Shown: positions 837-7,594 of the stretch, in pieces
Layout: the number at the start of each line of letters is the position of its first letter
Numbering within the stretch: the stretch's first letter is position 1
Source: a virus
Lineage: Duplodnaviria; Heunggongvirae; Uroviricota; Caudoviricetes
IMG/VR virus record: IMGVR_UViG_2778261094_000007
Reading direction: 5' to 3' (one strand)
DNA: 7,594 nt
Notes under the pieces: generated by a model
Told to the model about the DNA's origin: nothing
The model's database searches: none
What the model saw: the letters and a program-made list of their open reading frames with translations, nothing else
Made by a program: the position numbers and the translations under genes

Positions 837-1493
837 CTATTTCACTTCTCCGTCATACGTCGGGAGGGTGTCTTTAGTGGTGCTGGCTGTTCCTGCATTG
901 GTTGGCACTCGGCTTTTTACCTGTCCGCCTGTGCTCTTAGGTGATGCGGTCTTTACAGCAATAGCATTAGTGGTTGCATAGCTCACCAGGCGGATTTGTT
1001 CGAACTGCAAATCGAACTGTAAAGCTGATTCTGTTTTATATTCGTAGTCAATGCCTGTCAGAATCATATTATCAAACGTCTTATGCTCTGTGCTTACAAT
1101 AATAGGCTGTCTGGCATTCATTATTTCATCAAGATAAGCAATAGCCTGTGAACACCTGTTACCGTTCACCCCTGCACTTGATAGCATATCACCACGTAAT
1201 GCTAATGGTGTTTCTGTAATAATGCCTGAAAGCATAAGTTTATTATTCTTGATCCTGACATTATCAGATACATCATTACCATCCTGCACAGGATACGATG
1301 TAACATCGGCAGAACGTGAAACCTTAGTTGCCGGAACAGCGTCAAAAGTAATAGCTTTATAACTGGCTATCGTTGATGCATTTTCGTTATTCAGGTTGCT
1401 ACATATAATGGCAAATCCGTTATCAGATTTAACCTTGCTGTTAGATGTATTAATGTTAGATGTGCTGTTGATCTGACTTTCTTTGATAGCCAT
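837..1493 (-). CDS. Hypothetical protein, 218 aa, Asn/Ser/Thr-rich low-complexity termini; possible virion or tail-associated protein (function not established)
   Basis: Long ORF; ATG at 1493 preceded by AAGGA (1507-1503) with 9-nt spacing; last gene of the co-directional cluster, ending at the terminator hairpin. Confidence 0.65.
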   Translation of the reverse strand: MAIKESQINSTSNINTSNSKVKSDNGFAIICSNLNNENASTIASYKAITFDAVPATKVSRSADVTSYPVQDGNDVSDNVRIKNNKLMLSGIITETPLALRGDMLSSAGVNGNRCSQAIAYLDEIMNARQPIIVSTEHKTFDNMILTGIDYEYKTESALQFDLQFEQIRLVSYATTNAIAVKTASPKSTGGQVKSRVPTNAGTASTTKDTLPTYDGEVK

Positions 1494-1515
1494 TTATATT
1501 AATCCTTGTGTAATG

Positions 1516-1544
1516 AGCGGAAAGCAATAAATATTGCCCCCGCT
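1516..1544 (-). promoter_or_regulatory. Nested intergenic stem-loop (outer agcgg/ccgct, inner gcaata/tattgc) between the 633-aa and 218-aa genes
   Basis: Outer 5-bp stem 1516-1520 / 1540-1544 and inner 6-bp stem 1524-1529 / 1532-1537; sits in the 73-bp gap just 5' of the 218-aa gene ribosome-binding site. No U-tract on the minus strand, so more likely an RNA processing or stability element than a terminator. Confidence 0.3.
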
Positions 1545-1566
1545 TTATTATTAGTTATCGTTAAAC

Positions 1567-3468
1567 TTAGTTAACGCTACTCTGTCCTGACAACGTGCTA
1601 AGAATCAGATTCGAACTAAACTGATTGTTGTTCGCTCTGATCTCAGTGCGGATTAAATCCTGAAAGCCGGGACCGTTAGGGATGACGTTAACAGAGATCA
1701 TATCACTCGGCACCGTAACCTGTGCATTCACGTTAACAGGGGTTGCGTATTGACGTTGTAGGCTTACAGTCGGCTGATAGGCTTCTGCTTTACGTGCAAC
1801 AAGGGTTGATCCGTAGCTGTTAGCATTGCCATTAATTAAATCAGTCCACCACCCTGGAACGCCGGACTGTGTTTCCTCACCGCGCACAATACGCCCTACA
1901 TCTCTCGTATCGAGTCCAGTTGCATAACGAATACCTTCATTGATAATCGTTGATGGCGACCATTCCCCATCTGTAACAGCGTCCATAACCTTTTGTGTCT
2001 CAGGTCGGTTATCATTCTCACCACGGCTAAGATGTTTATTAATCCAGCTTGTGATTTGATTCCCGTAAGAAGTCATAGAGGTCAGTAATACAGCGCCTTG
2101 TTTAGCCAAATCCCCGAACGATGCACCAACACCATAAGCTGCATTCTGTAAGGCTTTGCTTTCTTCCGGTTTGAGTGCTGGCATGTTGGCTATGCCATCA
2201 AAGAAGCCCAAAATAGCCTGATTCGATAGTCCATCTGTCAGACGGTCAAAGGCTGTAGCTGTCTTGTTAGCTGCGCGATATTGCTCTTTCTGTGCTTCTG
2301 TCAGTAGCTGCCCGTTGTTTTTCATATCAACCATCGTTTTACGGAACTCTTCCCCATCACGGGAAAACATCTTGAGATAATGGCTGGCATCGTCTGCTAA
2401 TGGTTCGATCAGGGATATGATGGCTTCTTTAGTCATTCCTCGGCGTTCACCTTCTCTCACCACGTCTTGTAGGAGTTGCAGCGGTCGCCCCTGGTAGGAA
2501 GCTATCTTATCTTTGTTCCATGCAAAGGCATTCTGAATATCATTTAATGATCCTTCCCCGCCTCGCCACTCTTTTTTCTTACTATCCCATTCAGCAGTTC
2601 GGCTTTGATGACCAATGCGTTCGTTTAAGTCTTTGATATTATCAGTGGTCTTGTCCGCGCTTGCACTTGATACACCGTTTGCCCTCCCCCAATTAACCAT
2701 TGCAGCCACCTGATTGCTATCGGCACCTACCAGATCGCTCATCTTCTGCAATTCCATACGTTCACGGGCTTTTTCCATTCCAGCAGATACAGCCATACTT
2801 CCTAAGCCAACGGCAGCGCCGCCGATAATGCCACCAACACCGCCCATCATTAACGCGCCACCGCCGCTAACACCTTCTTTGTGGAGCTTCTTAGCAGTAA
2901 CTGGATATACCCCCCCAGCGGCAGCATTACGACGCGTAGCAGCGGCTGCGGCTCGTCTTTCTAATGTGATGCGGTCACGGATCAGGGCATTCATCTTCGC
3001 TTGCGATATAGCGCCGGATTCATAGAGGCGGGTTTGTTCCTTAATGTAACGTAGAGCATCGTGATATTTCTTAATATCCATCCCTTCGCCATAGCGGGAA
3101 TTGTTCTTGATGCCTTGTAACTGGCGATATGATGCAAGGCGCTTGATCTCTGCCTTTTCAGCAATTGAGGCTTGTTTAGCCTGTGCTTTAGCGAGGTTTT
3201 TAGCTTCCTGTAGCTTCTGTTTAGTGCTGGCTTTAGATGCCTGTGTCTCAGATTTAACAGCCTGCTTAACATGCTGATCATGCTGGCGCTGAATCTCTTT
3301 TCCCAGCCTCTGTAAATCTTTCTGACGTGCTGCCGCCACTTGCACAGGTTTGATCCCCTGCATCTTCTTTTGTAGCTTATCCACTTCATTCTTAGCTTTC
3401 TGTAAGCTCTTGAAATCAGTGGTAAATGTCACAACATTACTAATTCGTGAGGCGTTAATTTCTAACAT
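1567..3468 (-). CDS. Large coiled-coil plus glycine-zipper membrane-segment protein, 633 aa; tape-measure-like or ejection/pilot-like protein
   Basis: 1.9-kb ORF. N-terminal ~170 aa are K/Q/A/E-rich heptad-like sequence (coiled coil); aa ~201-231 read GGGALMMGGVGGIIGGAAVGLGSMAVSAG (DNA 2776-2868), a glycine-zipper hydrophobic segment typical of tape-measure and membrane-inserting phage proteins; C-terminal ~400 aa globular. AGGGA 10 nt upstream of ATG 3468. Confidence 0.85.
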   Translation of the reverse strand: MLEINASRISNVVTFTTDFKSLQKAKNEVDKLQKKMQGIKPVQVAAARQKDLQRLGKEIQRQHDQHVKQAVKSETQASKASTKQKLQEAKNLAKAQAKQASIAEKAEIKRLASYRQLQGIKNNSRYGEGMDIKKYHDALRYIKEQTRLYESGAISQAKMNALIRDRITLERRAAAAATRRNAAAGGVYPVTAKKLHKEGVSGGGALMMGGVGGIIGGAAVGLGSMAVSAGMEKARERMELQKMSDLVGADSNQVAAMVNWGRANGVSSASADKTTDNIKDLNERIGHQSRTAEWDSKKKEWRGGEGSLNDIQNAFAWNKDKIASYQGRPLQLLQDVVREGERRGMTKEAIISLIEPLADDASHYLKMFSRDGEEFRKTMVDMKNNGQLLTEAQKEQYRAANKTATAFDRLTDGLSNQAILGFFDGIANMPALKPEESKALQNAAYGVGASFGDLAKQGAVLLTSMTSYGNQITSWINKHLSRGENDNRPETQKVMDAVTDGEWSPSTIINEGIRYATGLDTRDVGRIVRGEETQSGVPGWWTDLINGNANSYGSTLVARKAEAYQPTVSLQRQYATPVNVNAQVTVPSDMISVNVIPNGPGFQDLIRTEIRANNNQFSSNLILSTLSGQSSVN

Positions 3469-3502
3469 GTTAATTGTTTCCCTGTATTATGATTGTTGTT
3501 TG

Positions 3503-3700
3503 TTATTGTTTTTTAAAGCAATAATATTGGATTGCCTCAAAAGTGCTGCATCCAGTCTGAAAGACACGCTGCCGCACATTATTCGAATCAATTGAAAGCA
3601 TTCTGCATAAGGCACTGACATTGATTATTGAGTCATCGCTAATAGCTGCCAGTTCTTTTACAGATTTAAGAATTAATGCCTGTGAATTTTCTGTGTTCAT
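3503..3700 (-). CDS. Small hypothetical protein, 65 aa
   Basis: ORF in the same orientation between the capsid-like and 633-aa genes; ATG at 3700 preceded by a purine-rich GAGAGAAAA stretch; non-low-complexity composition. Short, so uncertain. Confidence 0.45.
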   Translation of the reverse strand: MNTENSQALILKSVKELAAISDDSIINVSALCRMLSIDSNNVRQRVFQTGCSTFEAIQYYCFKKQ

Positions 3701-3826
3701 TGGTTTTCTCTCACATATATATTTTTATTTGGGTTTGTAGACAGTAGAAAAACAAAAAAGGGCAAGAGACAGCGCATATTTTGCTTATATGATTATCCCT
3801 TACCCTTATTGCCCCGATTATTTCCA

Positions 3827-3843
3827 GACGATGGGGAATCGTC
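3827..3843 (-). promoter_or_regulatory. Stem-loop gacgat-gggga-atcgtc 13 nt downstream of the capsid-like gene stop; candidate partial terminator or mRNA 3'-stabilising hairpin
   Basis: Perfect 6-bp stem with 5-nt loop read directly; not followed by a U-run on the minus strand, so not a canonical intrinsic terminator. Confidence 0.3.
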
Positions 3844-3856
3844 TATTAACGCTTTA

Positions 3857-4888
3857 TTACGCAGCAGATCCGAAGATGATAGCTTGCGGAATGTTGTTTA
3901 CTGGCAGATAAGATGTCTCAGTAACCACAGATGGGAATTGGAATTCATCCTTGATTAGATATTGGTGATGTAACACGGCATCTTGACCTAACTCAGCATG
4001 ACGCACACCAACGCCGCTATGAAGCTGGTAACACTGTGCCGCTTTATCCATTACCGGAACAATTGCGAAACCGTTCTCTCCGATGTGAGCAACAATCTCA
4101 GGAAACATTGACACGTCAATAACAGTGATCCCACCAATCTGGAAAGAGTCATAGGCTGGGTTAGAATCAACCATACGGGTAAACAGGGCCGTAGCACTCG
4201 CATCGCCTGCATATTTCACCATGTCACTGATCAGCGGGTTAGATGACAAACCATCAGCAGCAGCGCCAGCAGCAAAGATAATTACACCAGTTCGCTTTGC
4301 AGCAAGACCAGACCCCAGCTTTTCACTCTGTAAGCGCACCGCTTTACGAATAGCAAGGAACGGGTTAACAGTAGTCGATGCAAAGTCGATAGCGGGTACC
4401 GTGGTTTTAGCCTGACCGTCGAGGAAGTCGAGATCACCTTGTCCGGCATATTCAGATTCAACTTTCAGGCCCAGCAGCGCGGTAATCAGATCCACTTCAA
4501 CACGGTTTGCGTGTGAACGGTAATGAGCCTCAGAGAAATCATTAACCGCTACCAGCATAGCATCAGAACGGTTTGGATATTGGCGGCTGTATTGTTCCAG
4601 GTCACGAGAAGTAACAGCGTTAATACTGCCGACGTGTTTCATCTGGAAAAGTTTGTTTGACCATTCCTGACGTTTAGAGGCGTTCCAGTCGCTTTGAGCG
4701 TAAGGCGAGGTTTCCCCAGCTACCTGCACAAACTGATCGATCAGGTCGGTAAGAAGAATGCTGTTTTCTGTATGATATTGCACATCGAACAGATCGAGAT
4801 TAGTAATCAGGGTATTAAGTGCATTCTCATAAGCAAAAGGAGTTACTACCGCAGTATTAACGCCAAAATATGTTGATAAATCATTCAT
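3857..4888 (-). CDS. Putative major capsid protein, 343 aa (size and position compatible with a lambda gpE-type capsid protein; assignment by context only)
   Basis: Long ORF with a strong ribosome-binding site (AAGGAAAATAATA-ATG), directly downstream of a ~127-aa Ala/Val-rich gene in the decoration-then-capsid order seen in lambda (gpD 110 aa, gpE 341 aa); low Cys, rich in A/V/S/T/D. No sequence-level identity to lambda gpE could be confirmed by eye. Confidence 0.8.
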   Translation of the reverse strand: MNDLSTYFGVNTAVVTPFAYENALNTLITNLDLFDVQYHTENSILLTDLIDQFVQVAGETSPYAQSDWNASKRQEWSNKLFQMKHVGSINAVTSRDLEQYSRQYPNRSDAMLVAVNDFSEAHYRSHANRVEVDLITALLGLKVESEYAGQGDLDFLDGQAKTTVPAIDFASTTVNPFLAIRKAVRLQSEKLGSGLAAKRTGVIIFAAGAAADGLSSNPLISDMVKYAGDASATALFTRMVDSNPAYDSFQIGGITVIDVSMFPEIVAHIGENGFAIVPVMDKAAQCYQLHSGVGVRHAELGQDAVLHHQYLIKDEFQFPSVVTETSYLPVNNIPQAIIFGSAA

Positions 4889-4902
4889 TATTATTTTCCT
4901 TG

Positions 4903-5286
4903 TTAAGTCGTAGGGATCGCAAGTTCTTCATAACCAGCAATTACAAAGCCGAGAGATTGCAGTTTTGCAATAACACTTGCCTTTTCCATGCTGTTAAATT
5001 CAATCCCATCTTCAGCCAGAATAACGAAAGTAGGATGTGCAACCACTACGCTTTCCTGTCCTTCATAAGCCGGTTCAACTACTACGTGAGCAATATCAGA
5101 TGCAGTTGTTGCTTTGGTGCCATCGGCTTTCAGCAAAGCCCCGACAATAAGATCGTCAGTGAGAGGTGAAGCCAGTTTGACGAGGCGATCTTGCAGCACT
5201 GGATCAGCAGCGTAAGCTACTACCTTACAGCGTGAACGGGAATTATCCGCATTCACTGCTTTTAATTTTCCATATGGGTTAGCCAT
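4903..5286 (-). CDS. Putative head decoration protein, 127 aa (lambda gpD-like by size, position and loose motif resemblance)
   Basis: ORF immediately upstream of the capsid-like gene (14-nt gap) with the same AAGGAAAATAAT initiation motif; segments SRCKVVAYAAD and GALLKADGT loosely resemble lambda gpD SRKLVAW and GILAVAADQ. Low-confidence function. Confidence 0.75.
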   Translation of the reverse strand: MANPYGKLKAVNADNSRSRCKVVAYAADPVLQDRLVKLASPLTDDLIVGALLKADGTKATTASDIAHVVVEPAYEGQESVVVAHPTFVILAEDGIEFNSMEKASVIAKLQSLGFVIAGYEELAIPTT

Positions 5287-5290
5287 AAGA

Positions 5291-5488
5291 TTATTTTCCT
5301 TTCAGTTGTTTAATTTTAGATTTAAGGGCATCAGCAAGACTAACCGCATCAGCCGATTTAAATAATTGGGCAGTGGTAGAACGAAGACTTTCGGGAGTAA
5401 CTCCCAACAGTGCGGCAACCTTAATGAGGTTTTCATCACTAACAATCATCGTTTCCCCGTCTTTGCTGATAATCATTTCTTGTTTCAT
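5291..5488 (-). CDS. Small hypothetical protein, 65 aa from ATG 5488 (the ORF track extends to a TTG at 5530); first gene of the structural cluster
   Basis: ATG at 5488 is preceded by AGGAA with ~9-nt spacing, whereas the TTG at 5530 has no Shine-Dalgarno and adds a hydrophobic extension that overlaps the upstream hairpin. Its TAA stop (5293-5291) lies inside the ribosome-binding site of the next gene. Confidence 0.6.
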   Translation of the reverse strand: MKQEMIISKDGETMIVSDENLIKVAALLGVTPESLRSTTAQLFKSADAVSLADALKSKIKQLKGK

Positions 5489-5520
5489 AAATAACGTTCC
5501 TGTTAGTGCCAGACAAATAA

Positions 5521-5568
5521 AAAGCCCCAATGCCGTAAGAGGTTAATTCTGACCAGCAAAGGGGCTTT
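5521..5568 (-). terminator. Terminator-like hairpin (stem aaagcccc / ggggcttt, ~32-nt loop) followed on the minus strand by UUUUUAUUUG, ending ~30 nt upstream of the first structural gene
   Basis: 8-bp stem arms at 5521-5528 and 5561-5568 read directly; minus-strand sequence downstream of the stem is ggggctttttatttg. The unusually long loop lowers confidence. Confidence 0.35.
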
Positions 5569-6425
5569 AACGTGCGGGCAATTACATAATTGATAAGTTA
5601 AACTATAAGAGGATTAAACATATCAGCAAATACACTTTTTAAATATACTTGATGATATGCTTAAAGGGTGAATAGATACTCCTGAAAACATGCTCTTAGG
5701 AAAACATGCGGAATCAATCAGGAATATCTATTCGGGGCGCGGTGGCCAACCGCTATCTTTCATGGTGTGGATGCACCAGTCAGATTTTAAGGAATCACTA
5801 TTCCAATCTACTCACAGATTAAATTTTTAATAATGATTAACTACACCAACAGTAATCTACCGTTTCAGAAAATCGTTTTTACAACCAAAGCTTATAGATC
5901 CGCATTCTATAAAACCCGTTTTGCTATCAATATTTCCAAAGTTTATTGCACCATTCTTAGCTAAACTCTCTCTGCTTGCGGCTAACGCTATGCAGATGAT
6001 TGTTTTTGACAACAACTTAATAGATTATTCTGTTACTAACTTCTGTCATTAAATAATAGTTTAATGATGTTAGTAAATAGTTATAAAATATAACTATCAG
6101 TGTAAGGCTCTTTAATGTTTTCTGACAAAATAAGGAGCTTTAGGATAAGCATAGATGAAAAATAAGAGCGGGAAGGGCAAGGAGATAACACCTACCCGCT
6201 TTTATCAAAATTAAGCACAATGCCTAACAACATTCATCAACACAACGTAGAAACAATCAACAATCAAAGAGGGAGTTATGATTATTCTAAAACTTCTTGA
6301 GAGATGGAAGGTAATATTTGTTAGAGGTTAATGCCACTCAACCTTTGAGGCTATCACCTTCCATATGCAGGGATTTATGACAGTAGAAGGATTAACACCA
6401 GTCAAAACCTTTTTATCTACCCCTA

Positions 6426-6445
6426 ATTTCATTATATAATGAAAT
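6426..6445. promoter_or_regulatory. Perfect 20-bp palindrome atttcattat-ataatgaaat; candidate operator or protein-binding site
   Basis: Sequence equals its own reverse complement over 20 bp; lies 28 bp downstream of the 102-aa gene stop in the AT-rich spacer; related ttcattat repeated at 6466-6473. Confidence 0.3.
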
Positions 6446-6472
6446 TGTTATAAATGCAAATGATTTTCATTA

Positions 6473-6781
6473 TCACTTAGAAGAAATAGCACTTTTTGCT
6501 AAATCATCTACTAATTGCTGAATCTCTTCACTTGCAGCCTTTAACGTGCTGGCGGTGTCTGTGATGATTTGAGTGCACAGCCTGGCATCGTCCTCTGATA
6601 GCTCTAAATCGCTCACCAGAGAGATAAAATCGTCAAGGCTTACATTCACCTTCATTAAGCTAATAACGCATTGAGAGAGCGTGTAATCGCATAAATCTGA
6701 ATAGGCTTGATTTATTCTTGTTTGTAGTGAGATAGTCAGATCTAAAAGTTGTTCCATTGCATTGCTAATATCTTCTTCCAT
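6473..6781 (-). CDS. Small strongly acidic hypothetical protein, 102 aa
   Basis: ORF with AAGGAG ~10 nt upstream of ATG 6781; its start overlaps the stop of the upstream gene (TAATG, 6783-6779), indicating translational coupling; composition is strongly acidic (many D/E, few K/R). Confidence 0.7.
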   Translation of the reverse strand: MEEDISNAMEQLLDLTISLQTRINQAYSDLCDYTLSQCVISLMKVNVSLDDFISLVSDLELSEDDARLCTQIITDTASTLKAASEEIQQLVDDLAKSAISSK

Positions 6782-7026
6782 TATGCGGCTTCTCCTTGTA
6801 ATGCATCATTAATCATATTCAATACGATGTTAAAAGGTGTCTTGAGCGTCAGCACTTCATCACGATAACGCTCTAATGCTTCGTAGTCTTCTGTTTCTTT
6901 TGCCAGTCGGATTAACTCAGCATAGTTTTTTGCATCAGACAGGATCATCTGAAATAATTGTGTTTCTTGAATATAGCCAATCATTATTTTTCCTTTTTCG
7001 AATATTTTCATTGGGCGCTTATACAT
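6781..7026 (-). CDS. Small hypothetical protein, 81 aa (alternative start at ATG 6984 giving 67 aa)
   Basis: ORF inside the coupled operon; ATG 7026 has only a weak GGGTG upstream, whereas the in-frame ATG at 6984 is preceded by AAAAAGGAAAAATA, a strong Shine-Dalgarno resembling that of the capsid-cluster genes. Confidence 0.65.
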   Translation of the reverse strand: MYKRPMKIFEKGKIMIGYIQETQLFQMILSDAKNYAELIRLAKETEDYEALERYRDEVLTLKTPFNIVLNMINDALQGEAA

Positions 7027-7041
7027 ACACCCATCATTTTA

Positions 7042-7500
7042 TTAGTTAGAACGTTTGTTAGAAGCTAATGTATCTTCTAAATGAGCCATCAGATCGACTT
7101 CCGATGCACCACCTACACAATTATTGAAAGCGTTAAATCCCAAAAAATGATGATAGGAGCTAAACCCTAAAAGCTGCCAACGTTTCAGAGTGCCATCAGA
7201 AATGATAGTTTGTTTTCTTGTTCTTGGGCGAAAGTAAACGCCTGGCATTGACTGGATTATTTCTAATTCTTCATCGCTTAATTCAGGGGATTCTGCTTCA
7301 AGAATAAATATTATCTCTTCCCCTGGAATTTCGTTATTGGTGTGTGTCGGTGGACGTTGTCTTGTTGAATTGAAGTTACTGTTTTTTTCAATACGTTTTA
7401 AGTTATTACGTTTCTTTTTCCCATTTTCCCTCTTTTTATGTGGATTATAAAAACTTAATGTCATTGTTACGATGAATATCGCCATAAATGCATTTGCCAT
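7042..7500 (-). CDS. Hypothetical protein, 152 aa: N-terminal hydrophobic segment, Lys/Arg/Asn-rich linker, acidic stretch, C-terminal domain
   Basis: 459-nt ORF in ~30% GC DNA where stop codons are frequent; N-terminus AFMAIFIVTMTLSFY is hydrophobic (possible membrane anchor or signal), followed by KKRENGKKKRNNLKR. No clear Shine-Dalgarno before ATG 7500, so the start is uncertain. Confidence 0.55.
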   Translation of the reverse strand: MANAFMAIFIVTMTLSFYNPHKKRENGKKKRNNLKRIEKNSNFNSTRQRPPTHTNNEIPGEEIIFILEAESPELSDEELEIIQSMPGVYFRPRTRKQTIISDGTLKRWQLLGFSSYHHFLGFNAFNNCVGGASEVDLMAHLEDTLASNKRSN

Positions 7501-7594
7501 ATGTATTGCCCGATCTGGGTAATGACTCCAACTTATTGATAGTGTTTTATGTTCAGATAATGCCCGATGACTTTGTCATGCAGCTCCACCGATT

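Follow-up and report, generated by a model that had tools for sequence, protein, structure and literature searches.

A predicted structured leader RNA with two intrinsic terminators precedes the capsid operon of a phage-satellite-like island in Escherichia coli

An ORF-free spacer ahead of the capsid operon of an Escherichia coli genomic island most likely encodes, as judged from sequence comparisons, a heavily folded non-coding RNA of approximately 0.9 kb that is read from the minus strand and is equipped with a promoter and two terminators. This leader RNA matches no known RNA family in Rfam 15. The constant succession of promoter, structured RNA, terminator(s) and an operon for which no σ70-type promoter of its own was found points to a cis-acting gate, and we give an even chance to the proposal that the leader RNA would control read-through into the structural operon by regulated antitermination. 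The spacer was analyzed within a 7,594-nucleotide stretch of Caudoviricetes DNA (IMG/VR record IMGVR_UViG_2778261094_000007), hereafter referred to as the window, as a follow-up to an original prediction that had been made from the letters of the window without database searches.

The island, which is approximately 12-13 kb long, is integrated in E. coli beside a tRNA-Gly gene that adjoins the ETT2 type III secretion locus, and every island gene in the window is on the minus strand. Its structural operon is read in the order 65-aa gene (5291-5488, with the ATG at 5488), decoration-like gene, major capsid protein gene (3857-4888), tape-measure-like gene (1567-3468), and Dit-like tail protein gene (837-1493); in the window, the place between this first 65-aa gene and the major capsid gene is taken by a 127-aa gene, and that between the major capsid and tape-measure-like genes by another 65-aa gene. 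Genes of 102, 67, and 127 aa lie on the far side of the spacer from the capsid genes, and the small proteins flanking the spacer did not yield any match in Pfam, PHROG or the PDB. The major capsid protein was assigned through a weak PHROG major-head match and through homologs of the lambda gpE family, in which PF03864 was found. The Dit-like protein shares 60-64% identity with gp103 of the approximately 150-kb virulent phAPEC8-like phages (Phapecoctavirus, Stephanstirmvirinae), and the C-terminal two-thirds of the tape-measure-like protein are 32-34% identical to gp104 of these phages; the gene order is also that of phAPEC8-like phages in condensed form (decoration, capsid and, further on, small gene, tape-measure, and gp103). 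No terminase, portal or replication gene is annotated in the island, and literature searches turned up neither this island nor any Stephanstirmvirinae satellite; the island is probably an undescribed phage-satellite-like element of a new satellite-like or assembly-interfering kind. The copy in the window has been degraded by IS insertions, with the end of an IS1 at 7519-7594 and, at 1-76, the end of a widely repeated element, which we take to be IS2, that cuts the integrase short.

The original prediction described 5531-6472 as an AT-rich spacer in which neither strand has an ORF of at least 60 aa. An ORF-poor stretch is indeed present at this place and the longest ORF within it is 52 aa on either strand, while the ORF-free gap proper is 5489-6472, because the downstream gene begins at the ATG at 5488 and not at a TTG at 5530. 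The GC content, previously put at roughly 25-30%, was measured as 34.0% for 5531-6472 (36.9, 31.0, and 33.9% in its thirds, and 30% in the lowest 200-nt segment), as compared to 41.7% for the whole window. Of 5426 complete E. coli genomes, 281 contain the 942-base spacer; identity is 90-100% except in two records, and the copies listed are without an annotated feature (PGAP); a second allele type of the spacer was found in 64 further E. coli genomes. Conservation across the island is mosaic. At locus L005, the capsid module has been swapped for an allele that is 20-31% identical in protein, and 5700-6470 is still 94-100% identical, with 95-100% identity in the core of the spacer, despite the swapped module adjoining it; in other strains, the divergent part is 5600-5850. 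Comparison of divergent spacer alleles by tblastx produced matches that were equal in all frames, without a preferred frame, and a pseudogene or hidden gene in the spacer was rejected on this basis. Searches against Rfam 15 found no match in the window at E-values of up to 1 on both strands, and identified tRNAs only in seven related loci at the gathering score.

Support for a folded RNA comes from a 158-nt structured module near the operon end of the spacer (5811-5654, minus strand), which was delineated by RNAalifold, a covariance model and inverted repeat I1. With only four to five independent diverged E. coli allele lineages as the basis for covariation, RNAalifold predicted 30 pairs in this 3' module, 17 of which are changed on both sides; 99.2% of the cells are paired, as compared to 29-44% with partners slid by 1-3 columns, and 0 of 500 shuffles reached the observed value on four of five measures. 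Twenty-six metagenome loci that were added to the alleles brought only already known types. The module thus carries compensatory substitutions beyond those in the controls, as is characteristic of a structured non-coding RNA, and its covariance model scores 150.5 bits in the window. Within the module, a helix ATCT/AGAT encloses hairpin A (5778-5763) with the invariant TGCATCCACA; it is followed by hairpin B (5753-5739; GCGGT-tggcc-ACCGC), the arms of which read GCGGT/ACCGC in the window vs GCGAT/ATCGC in the L018-type allele, and by a 16-bp stem (5733-5718 with 5685-5670) with GAUUCC and a further hairpin inside it, the loop of which, UCCUAAGAGC (5701-5692), is conserved. Hairpin B, which has 5 bp and covaries, makes up together with a junction the GC-rich 21-mer cggggcgcggtggccaaccgc at 5733-5753; the original prediction had positioned this 21-mer exactly and had considered it isolated, while it is in fact embedded in the module. 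A comparison of the 21-mer with the phAPEC8 "PHIRE promoter" motif did not reveal a convincing relation. Next to the module, a further long hairpin (5615-5661, minus strand), identified by the minimum-free-energy fold and by alignments, follows the conserved CACCCUUUAAG and has arms that differ yet stay complementary in three allele types.

The inverted repeats that were found mechanically coincide with the covarying helices, and the whole leader folds more stably on the minus strand (-263.5 kcal/mol, z = -10.1 vs shuffled sequences) than on the plus strand (-230.5 kcal/mol, z = -7.5). Approximately 18 G-U cells in the helices would be A-C mismatches on the plus strand and fit the minus strand only, which identifies the minus strand as the RNA strand. 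These observations also bear on a reading of the spacer as a DNA-level site, i.e., a packaging site (cos or pac) for a helper terminase or an origin of island replication. An island without a terminase, a portal or an obvious replication gene needs cis-acting sites somewhere; moreover, the core of the spacer is unusually conserved beside swapped modules, and its place upstream of the head genes resembles that of lambda cos, which is likewise located upstream of head genes. Compensatory changes and strand-specific G-U pairs, however, are unexpected for a site in double-stranded DNA. An origin had been among the functions suggested for the spacer by the original prediction, but 5489-6472 contains neither a DnaA box (≤1 mismatch) nor iteron families; the only match to the lambda cosN 12-mer GGGCGGCGACCT (≤3 mismatches) is at 5410, outside the spacer, and the spacer has no DNA similarity to any phage record. 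A second non-coding gap in the island, which is larger than that at 5489-6472, could host such sites, and we regard a DNA-level site in the spacer as improbable.

The RNA would begin at a predicted leader promoter (6459-6431, minus strand), which starts 14 nt past the stop codon of the upstream 102-aa gene and consists of a -35 hexamer TTGCAT (6459-6454), a 17-nt spacer and a -10 hexamer TATAAT (6436-6431); a promoter scan read the same site as TTTGCA-18-TATAAT, with 10 of 12 matches to the σ70 consensus. The near-consensus hexamers and the 16-18-nt spacing qualify it, by consensus match only, as a σ70 promoter, and the predicted transcription start is near 6424. A second internal promoter was plausible in the L027 allele only and was not retained. 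Two stem-loops would form the 5' module. Stem-loop 1 (6369-6424, minus strand), identified from the allele alignment and single-sequence folds, holds GTTAATCCTTCT (6396-6385), which is nearly invariant across E. coli alleles, and has an apical hairpin of the form UUnnC-UGG-nGUUAA; its outer stem differs by allele yet remains complementary (GTAGA/TCTAC, AATCG/CGATT or GAATAG/CTATTC). While stem-loop 1 takes the same shape when each allele is folded singly, automatic alignment gave weak RNAalifold support, and the outer-stem covariation was recognized by inspection and single-sequence folds. Stem-loop 2 (6304-6364, minus strand) is a long hairpin (GGAAGGT...ACCTTCC) found through inverted repeat I2 (6304-6316 with 6352-6364), alignments and folds; the L018-type allele has a different but complementary version (GAAAGCG...CGCTTTC) and the L027-type allele has none.

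Assignment of the transcript to the minus strand changes the interpretation of two micro-ORFs on the plus strand, a 17-aa ORF1 (6278-6331) and a 19-aa ORF2 (6155-6214), which the original prediction had positioned correctly and had proposed as leader peptides or small regulatory proteins. That prediction looked at the wrong strand: ORF1 is antisense to the leader RNA and overlaps stem-loop 2, and ORF2 is antisense to the internal terminator T1 described below. Neither frame is conserved; when homologous islands were checked, ORF1 was frameshifted in 9 of 34 sampled copies, ORF2 had lost its stop in 6 of 34 and was truncated in 1 more, and neither had a match at other loci, including the L018-type and L027-type E. 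coli alleles. The spacer is more AT-rich than its surroundings (34% vs 41.7% GC) and a GAGGGAG motif is located just upstream of ORF1, both of which would suit an AT-rich spacer that is silenced by H-NS and from which the two micro-ORFs are translated. This reading is nevertheless very improbable, given not only the frameshifts, the lost stops and the lack of matches elsewhere but also the position of both micro-ORFs antisense to covarying helices that are kept in other E. coli allele types and the absence of frame-specific conservation in tblastx. The broader expectation that the spacer would host a promoter and RNA, on the other hand, agrees with the near-consensus promoter, two intrinsic terminators and covarying helices predicted here.

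The first of these terminators, T1 (6200-6158, minus strand), is internal to the leader and is predicted from a hairpin (AGCGGG...CCCGCT; -17.6 kcal/mol) followed by CTTATTTTT, with the U-tract CUUAUUUUU. The L018 and L027 alleles each have a counterpart at an equal relative position, also composed of a hairpin and a U-tract and unrelated in sequence, so that T1 is represented in three E. coli allele types. Between T1 and the 3' module is an AT-rich variable middle segment (5833-6153, minus strand), which contains a perfect 9-bp palindrome, ATAGTTATA-nnn-TATAACTAT (6077-6097), and which is 95-100% conserved in window-type copies; the L018-type allele has another sequence in its place, and the L027-type allele lacks part of it. 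The second predicted terminator, T2 (5568-5515, minus strand), corresponds to inverted repeat I3, in which AAAGCCCC...GGGGCTTT is followed by TTATTTG (hairpin energy -23.0 kcal/mol, tract UUUUUAUUU); at L005, the T2 stem shows a compensatory change (AAATCCCCC/GGGGGATTT). Both T1 and T2 combine a GC-rich hairpin with a directly following U-tract on the transcribed strand, as expected of intrinsic terminators, and a simple terminator scan missed both because their loops exceed 8 nt.

T2 ends approximately 27 nt ahead of the start codon of the first capsid-operon gene, and in the window a promoter scan did not find any σ70-like promoter past T2 and ahead of the operon; a helper-phage-specific promoter may be located between T2 and the start codon. 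This interval contains a palindrome, TAAC-AGGAAC-GTTA (5486-5507, minus strand), around the ribosome-binding site that precedes the ATG at 5488, and TAAC-N6-7-GTTA occupies the equivalent place in 13 of the 21 sequences compared, with near variants in others. We did not find a conserved alternative pairing able to disrupt T2; pairing of a GCCCC linker with the 3' arm of T2, considered as an antiterminator, is not kept in the L002-type allele and was rejected.

Related islands, found via the capsid protein, are present in Klebsiella, Cronobacter, Citrobacter, Pluralibacter, Enterobacter, Buttiauxella, Kluyvera, Phytobacter, Scandinavium, and Raoultella, and further related loci are a short contig from Kosakonia and an atypical locus in Yersinia. 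In the ten genera named first, an ORF-free gap of 0.45-0.75 kb occupies the same place as the gap of 0.86-1.1 kb in E. coli alleles. A TTGACA-like hexamer, a 16-18-nt spacer and TAnnnT were found in the gap, mostly near its 5' end, in 17 of 21 family leaders. A hairpin with a T-run is located approximately 25-75 nt ahead of the first capsid-operon gene in all 10 of the gaps that were folded (from E. coli, two species of Klebsiella, Cronobacter, Citrobacter, Pluralibacter, and Enterobacter); loci added later have the same hairpin and T-run, with the exception of the atypical Yersinia locus. The layout of a promoter, a 0.45-0.9-kb ORF-free leader and a terminator is kept in at least 11 other enterobacterial genera. 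Leaders of other genera have covarying long hairpins of their own, both partners having changed in 13 of 17 pairs, and they escaped detection by the covariance model built from the E. coli 3' module; as far as sequence comparison can tell, the family-wide conservation is one of architecture and not of demonstrable homology.

The comparisons within and beyond E. coli also speak to whether the spacer could be a decayed remnant of ancestral phage genes without present function, e.g., of genes between the regulators and the decoration gene of phAPEC8-like genomes. Such an origin would be in keeping with an island gene order that mirrors a condensed phAPEC8 structural module and with a middle segment that is variable and partly dispensable. 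It would not be expected, however, to leave helices that are maintained by compensatory substitutions or a promoter and terminators that are kept across at least 11 other genera, and no protein-level similarity is left in any frame; a decayed remnant is disfavoured and, in our estimation, extremely improbable.

Under the cis-acting gate that we propose, the σ70-type promoter right after the 102-aa gene would drive an untranslated, structured minus-strand leader of approximately 0.9 kb, in which the 5' module with its two stem-loops would be followed by T1, the variable middle segment, the 3' module of covarying helices and T2, with T2 sitting just ahead of the ribosome-binding site of the structural operon. 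RNA polymerase would normally halt at T1 or T2, and the capsid and tail genes would be expressed only once polymerase becomes termination-resistant, presumably on helper-phage infection; the conserved RNA modules would act as antitermination or recognition elements. Transcription of the spacer, regulated termination and an acting factor are all predicted here from sequence features. Among the island proteins, the conserved 127-aa protein, whose N-terminus is basic, would be a possible partner. A protein of 127-135 aa with a basic, probably disordered N-terminus is found family-wide in the related islands; the conserved 127-aa protein has no detectable homologs of known function, with no match in Pfam or the PDB and no homology to N, and its structure model is of low confidence (pLDDT 56.6) and thus too poor for a fold search.

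Several known systems share parts of this arrangement. Like the lambdoid late leader (pR', 6S RNA, tR', and Q), the island has a predicted strong promoter directly after a small regulatory gene, from which an untranslated leader would lead through an intrinsic terminator to structural genes (here without a σ70-type promoter of their own having been found), and its major capsid protein belongs to the lambda gpE family, given PF03864 in the homologs. By contrast, the lambdoid leader is approximately 0.2 kb long, as compared to approximately 0.9 kb for the elaborately structured, covarying island leader with its two terminators; neither a homolog of Q nor a Q-binding element was identified, the upstream island proteins lack Pfam and PHROG matches, and the apparent relatives of the island tail genes are virulent phAPEC8-like myoviruses. 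Antitermination of the lambda N/nut type was considered and rejected, as the lambda boxA-like CGCTCTTA is present in the T1 tail of the window allele type only and not in L018 or L027. In the P4 immunity leader (CI RNA; seqA, seqB, and seqC), a satellite operon is controlled by premature termination in a structured leader. The island resembles P4 in being satellite-like and in having predicted termination within a structured leader RNA; unlike P4, its leader has no C4/CI match in Rfam and was not found to contain repeated complementary boxes of the seq kind.

Other mobile elements, too, have long structured leaders that contain terminators, as well as processive antitermination based on RNA; examples are conAn, which consists of a large RNA and a small protein in Gram-positive conjugative elements (PMC8191782), and the zipper-type attenuator in the 456-nt leader of the pLS20 conjugation operon (PMC13401043). 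With these two systems and the HK022 put RNA, the island shares a large structured RNA at the head of a long mobile-element operon, intrinsic terminators that guard against spurious expression and a small protein gene close by. They belong, however, to another host clade and element type; their likeness to the island leader is architectural only, and no zipper-like alternative pairing with T2, as in pLS20, was found here.

The main rival to a cis-acting leader is one or more trans-acting satellite RNAs, namely an RNA of approximately 270 nt from the promoter to T1 and a 3' RNA that ends at T2, which would simply be the end of an RNA gene. Conserved single-stranded CU-rich motifs (GUUAAUCCUUCU, GAUUCC, and UCCUAAGAGC) would then pair with Shine-Dalgarno regions of island or helper-phage mRNAs. 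A precedent is SviR of the Vibrio cholerae PLE satellite, a 210-nt sRNA that has a promoter and a terminator of its own and controls genes of both satellite and phage, one of them in the capsid operon (doi 10.1101/2022.04.08.487710). SviR resembles the predicted island RNA in that it is non-coding, has a promoter and an intrinsic terminator to itself, lies in a conserved ORF-free region, belongs to a satellite of a virulent myovirus and is linked to regulation of a capsid operon. In addition, the promoter and T1 delimit a discrete RNA of sRNA-like size; UCCU motifs, which are complementary to AGGA-type ribosome-binding sites, are kept across E. coli allele types in predicted loops, junctions and unpaired segments; and CCUAAGA hairpin loops recur in other genera. 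SviR, however, is approximately 210 nt long and acts in trans through defined seeds; the island RNA would have a length of as much as 0.9 kb and would run in the direction of the capsid operon that it adjoins, and no targets of it were found. Within the island, complements of four conserved motifs match the opposite strand of the leader itself, and the only other hit, in the Dit-like gene, has 1 mismatch. The 79 kb of phAPEC8 searched contain one exact 10-mer vs approximately 0.15 expected by chance, and neither search yielded anything beyond chance. A 0.9-kb RNA with two tandem terminators would also be atypical for an sRNA, and the constant abutment on the capsid operon, in the same orientation and with no intervening promoter, would be left unexplained. 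We thus judge trans-acting RNAs to be unlikely, while still a serious competitor to the cis-acting leader.

As a cis-acting gate, the leader would probably be the late switch in an island of a new kind, either satellite-like or assembly-interfering, given that the island genes are phAPEC8-like, that terminase, portal and replication genes are not annotated and that the island is undescribed in the literature searched. We put forward more tentatively the possibility of an undescribed class of large (0.45-0.95 kb) structured RNAs that would define an undescribed family of approximately 12-13-kb integrative islands in Enterobacteriaceae. In this view, the islands, with only capsid, decoration, tape-measure-like and Dit-like genes related to those of virulent phAPEC8-like myoviruses, would be satellites or assembly-interfering parasites of lytic phages. 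The RNA would either respond to infection as a switch, in the role of a sensor or of an RNA-based processive antiterminator, or regulate the morphogenesis of helper and satellite at several sites.

Approximately 6% of complete E. coli genomes (281 + 64 of 5426) carry this spacer, which has clear RNA covariation and no Rfam match and has never been annotated, although E. coli is the best-annotated organism. If the antitermination gate holds true, RNA control of late genes in Gram-negative bacteria would gain a new example, and helper sensing by a new kind of satellite-like island would become accessible to experiments; the helper appears to be a virulent phage from a group that is employed in phage therapy. 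Given the homologs of phage capsid and tail parts in the island, the switch may decide between defence, interference and transfer.

In the genome from which the window derives, the island copy is disrupted on both sides, since an insertion-sequence end is found at each end of the window. Positions 7519-7594 represent an IS1 end, as indicated by the IS1A-family transposase annotated under the match, and positions 1-76 represent the terminal sequence of an insertion sequence, which also occurs in thousands of plasmid records; we take the latter to be the left end of IS2. The element end at 1-76 has cut the island integrase down to its C-terminal 187 aa (243-806).

Several minus-strand genes precede the leader. 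One of these (7042-7500) encodes a family-wide protein of 127-135 aa with an N-terminus rich in lysine and arginine (MGKKKRNNLKRIEK); in the window, the start codon of other strains (ATG, 7424-7422) does not lie in the reading frame, and the ORF starts instead at the ATG at 7500 and yields 152 aa. Both a 152-aa and a 125-127-aa form are found in the protein database. Another (6473-6781), located directly upstream of the leader promoter, encodes an acidic protein of 102 aa. Depending on the strain, genome annotation calls this protein "transporter" or "hypothetical"; the "transporter" label has no support from any Pfam or PHROG family. The N-terminal part of this protein represents a further mosaic breakpoint, with 6700-6980 being different in two other island copies (L003 and L005).

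In its variable middle segment, the leader carries a perfect 9-bp palindrome, ATAGTTATA-nnn-TATAACTAT (6077-6097), and a weak promoter-like site (6128-6099, minus strand) lies immediately upstream of it; this palindrome, which is absent in the other leader allele types, looks like an operator. Of the 21 sequences compared, 13 have a short TAAC-N6-7-GTTA palindrome between the start codon and T2, the predicted terminator before the capsid operon, and in the window (5494-5507, minus strand) the palindrome flanks the ribosome-binding site on both sides; this palindrome could form a small RNA hairpin or serve as a protein-binding site.

E. coli has at least two ancient alleles of the capsid module downstream (i.e., the 65-aa gene, the decoration-like gene, and the major capsid protein gene), with protein identities of just 20-31% (window 3800-5600 versus L005 6324-7952). 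These alleles have been swapped beside near-identical leader DNA, and the recombination boundaries of the swap fall around 5560-5700.

A second ORF-free gap of 1.4-2.4 kb, larger than the leader spacer, was observed outside the window (L001 17270-19040); it is flanked by the island early genes and a small recombinase and occupies the same position in L002-L005 and L016-L023. In E. coli, this recombinase is a serine resolvase/invertase of 183-185 aa, except in strain H22, which has, like the other genera, a tyrosine recombinase of 186-205 aa. Within the gap, a predicted promoter (TTGACA-17-TAAAGT) faces the early genes, and a perfect 15-bp palindrome is present (L001 18276-18310). The gap could be a switch that works by inversion, or else a further RNA or DNA element.

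In the virulent myovirus phAPEC8, GTAGGGCGGCAATGGTGCCG is annotated as a "PHIRE promoter" (L065 556-575, 1787-1806, and 3202-3221). This motif is able to fold as a small GC hairpin, and its copy at 3202 directly follows a host-type promoter annotated at 3165-3201; rather than a promoter, the motif could therefore be an RNA element of the 5'-UTR.

The island (window 837-5488; L001 8059-21378) is a member of a family of elements of approx. 12-13 kb that has apparently not been described before. Members of the family, loci L016-L038 among them, come from no fewer than 12 enterobacterial genera and are integrated at tRNA sites or elsewhere; their gene content is limited to integrase, Dit-like, tape-measure-like, capsid, decoration-like, and small genes. 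This gene content, along with the likeness of the island tail genes to their counterparts in virulent phAPEC8-like myoviruses (identities of 60-64% and 32-34%), suggests that the family may represent satellite or assembly-interference elements directed at lytic phages.
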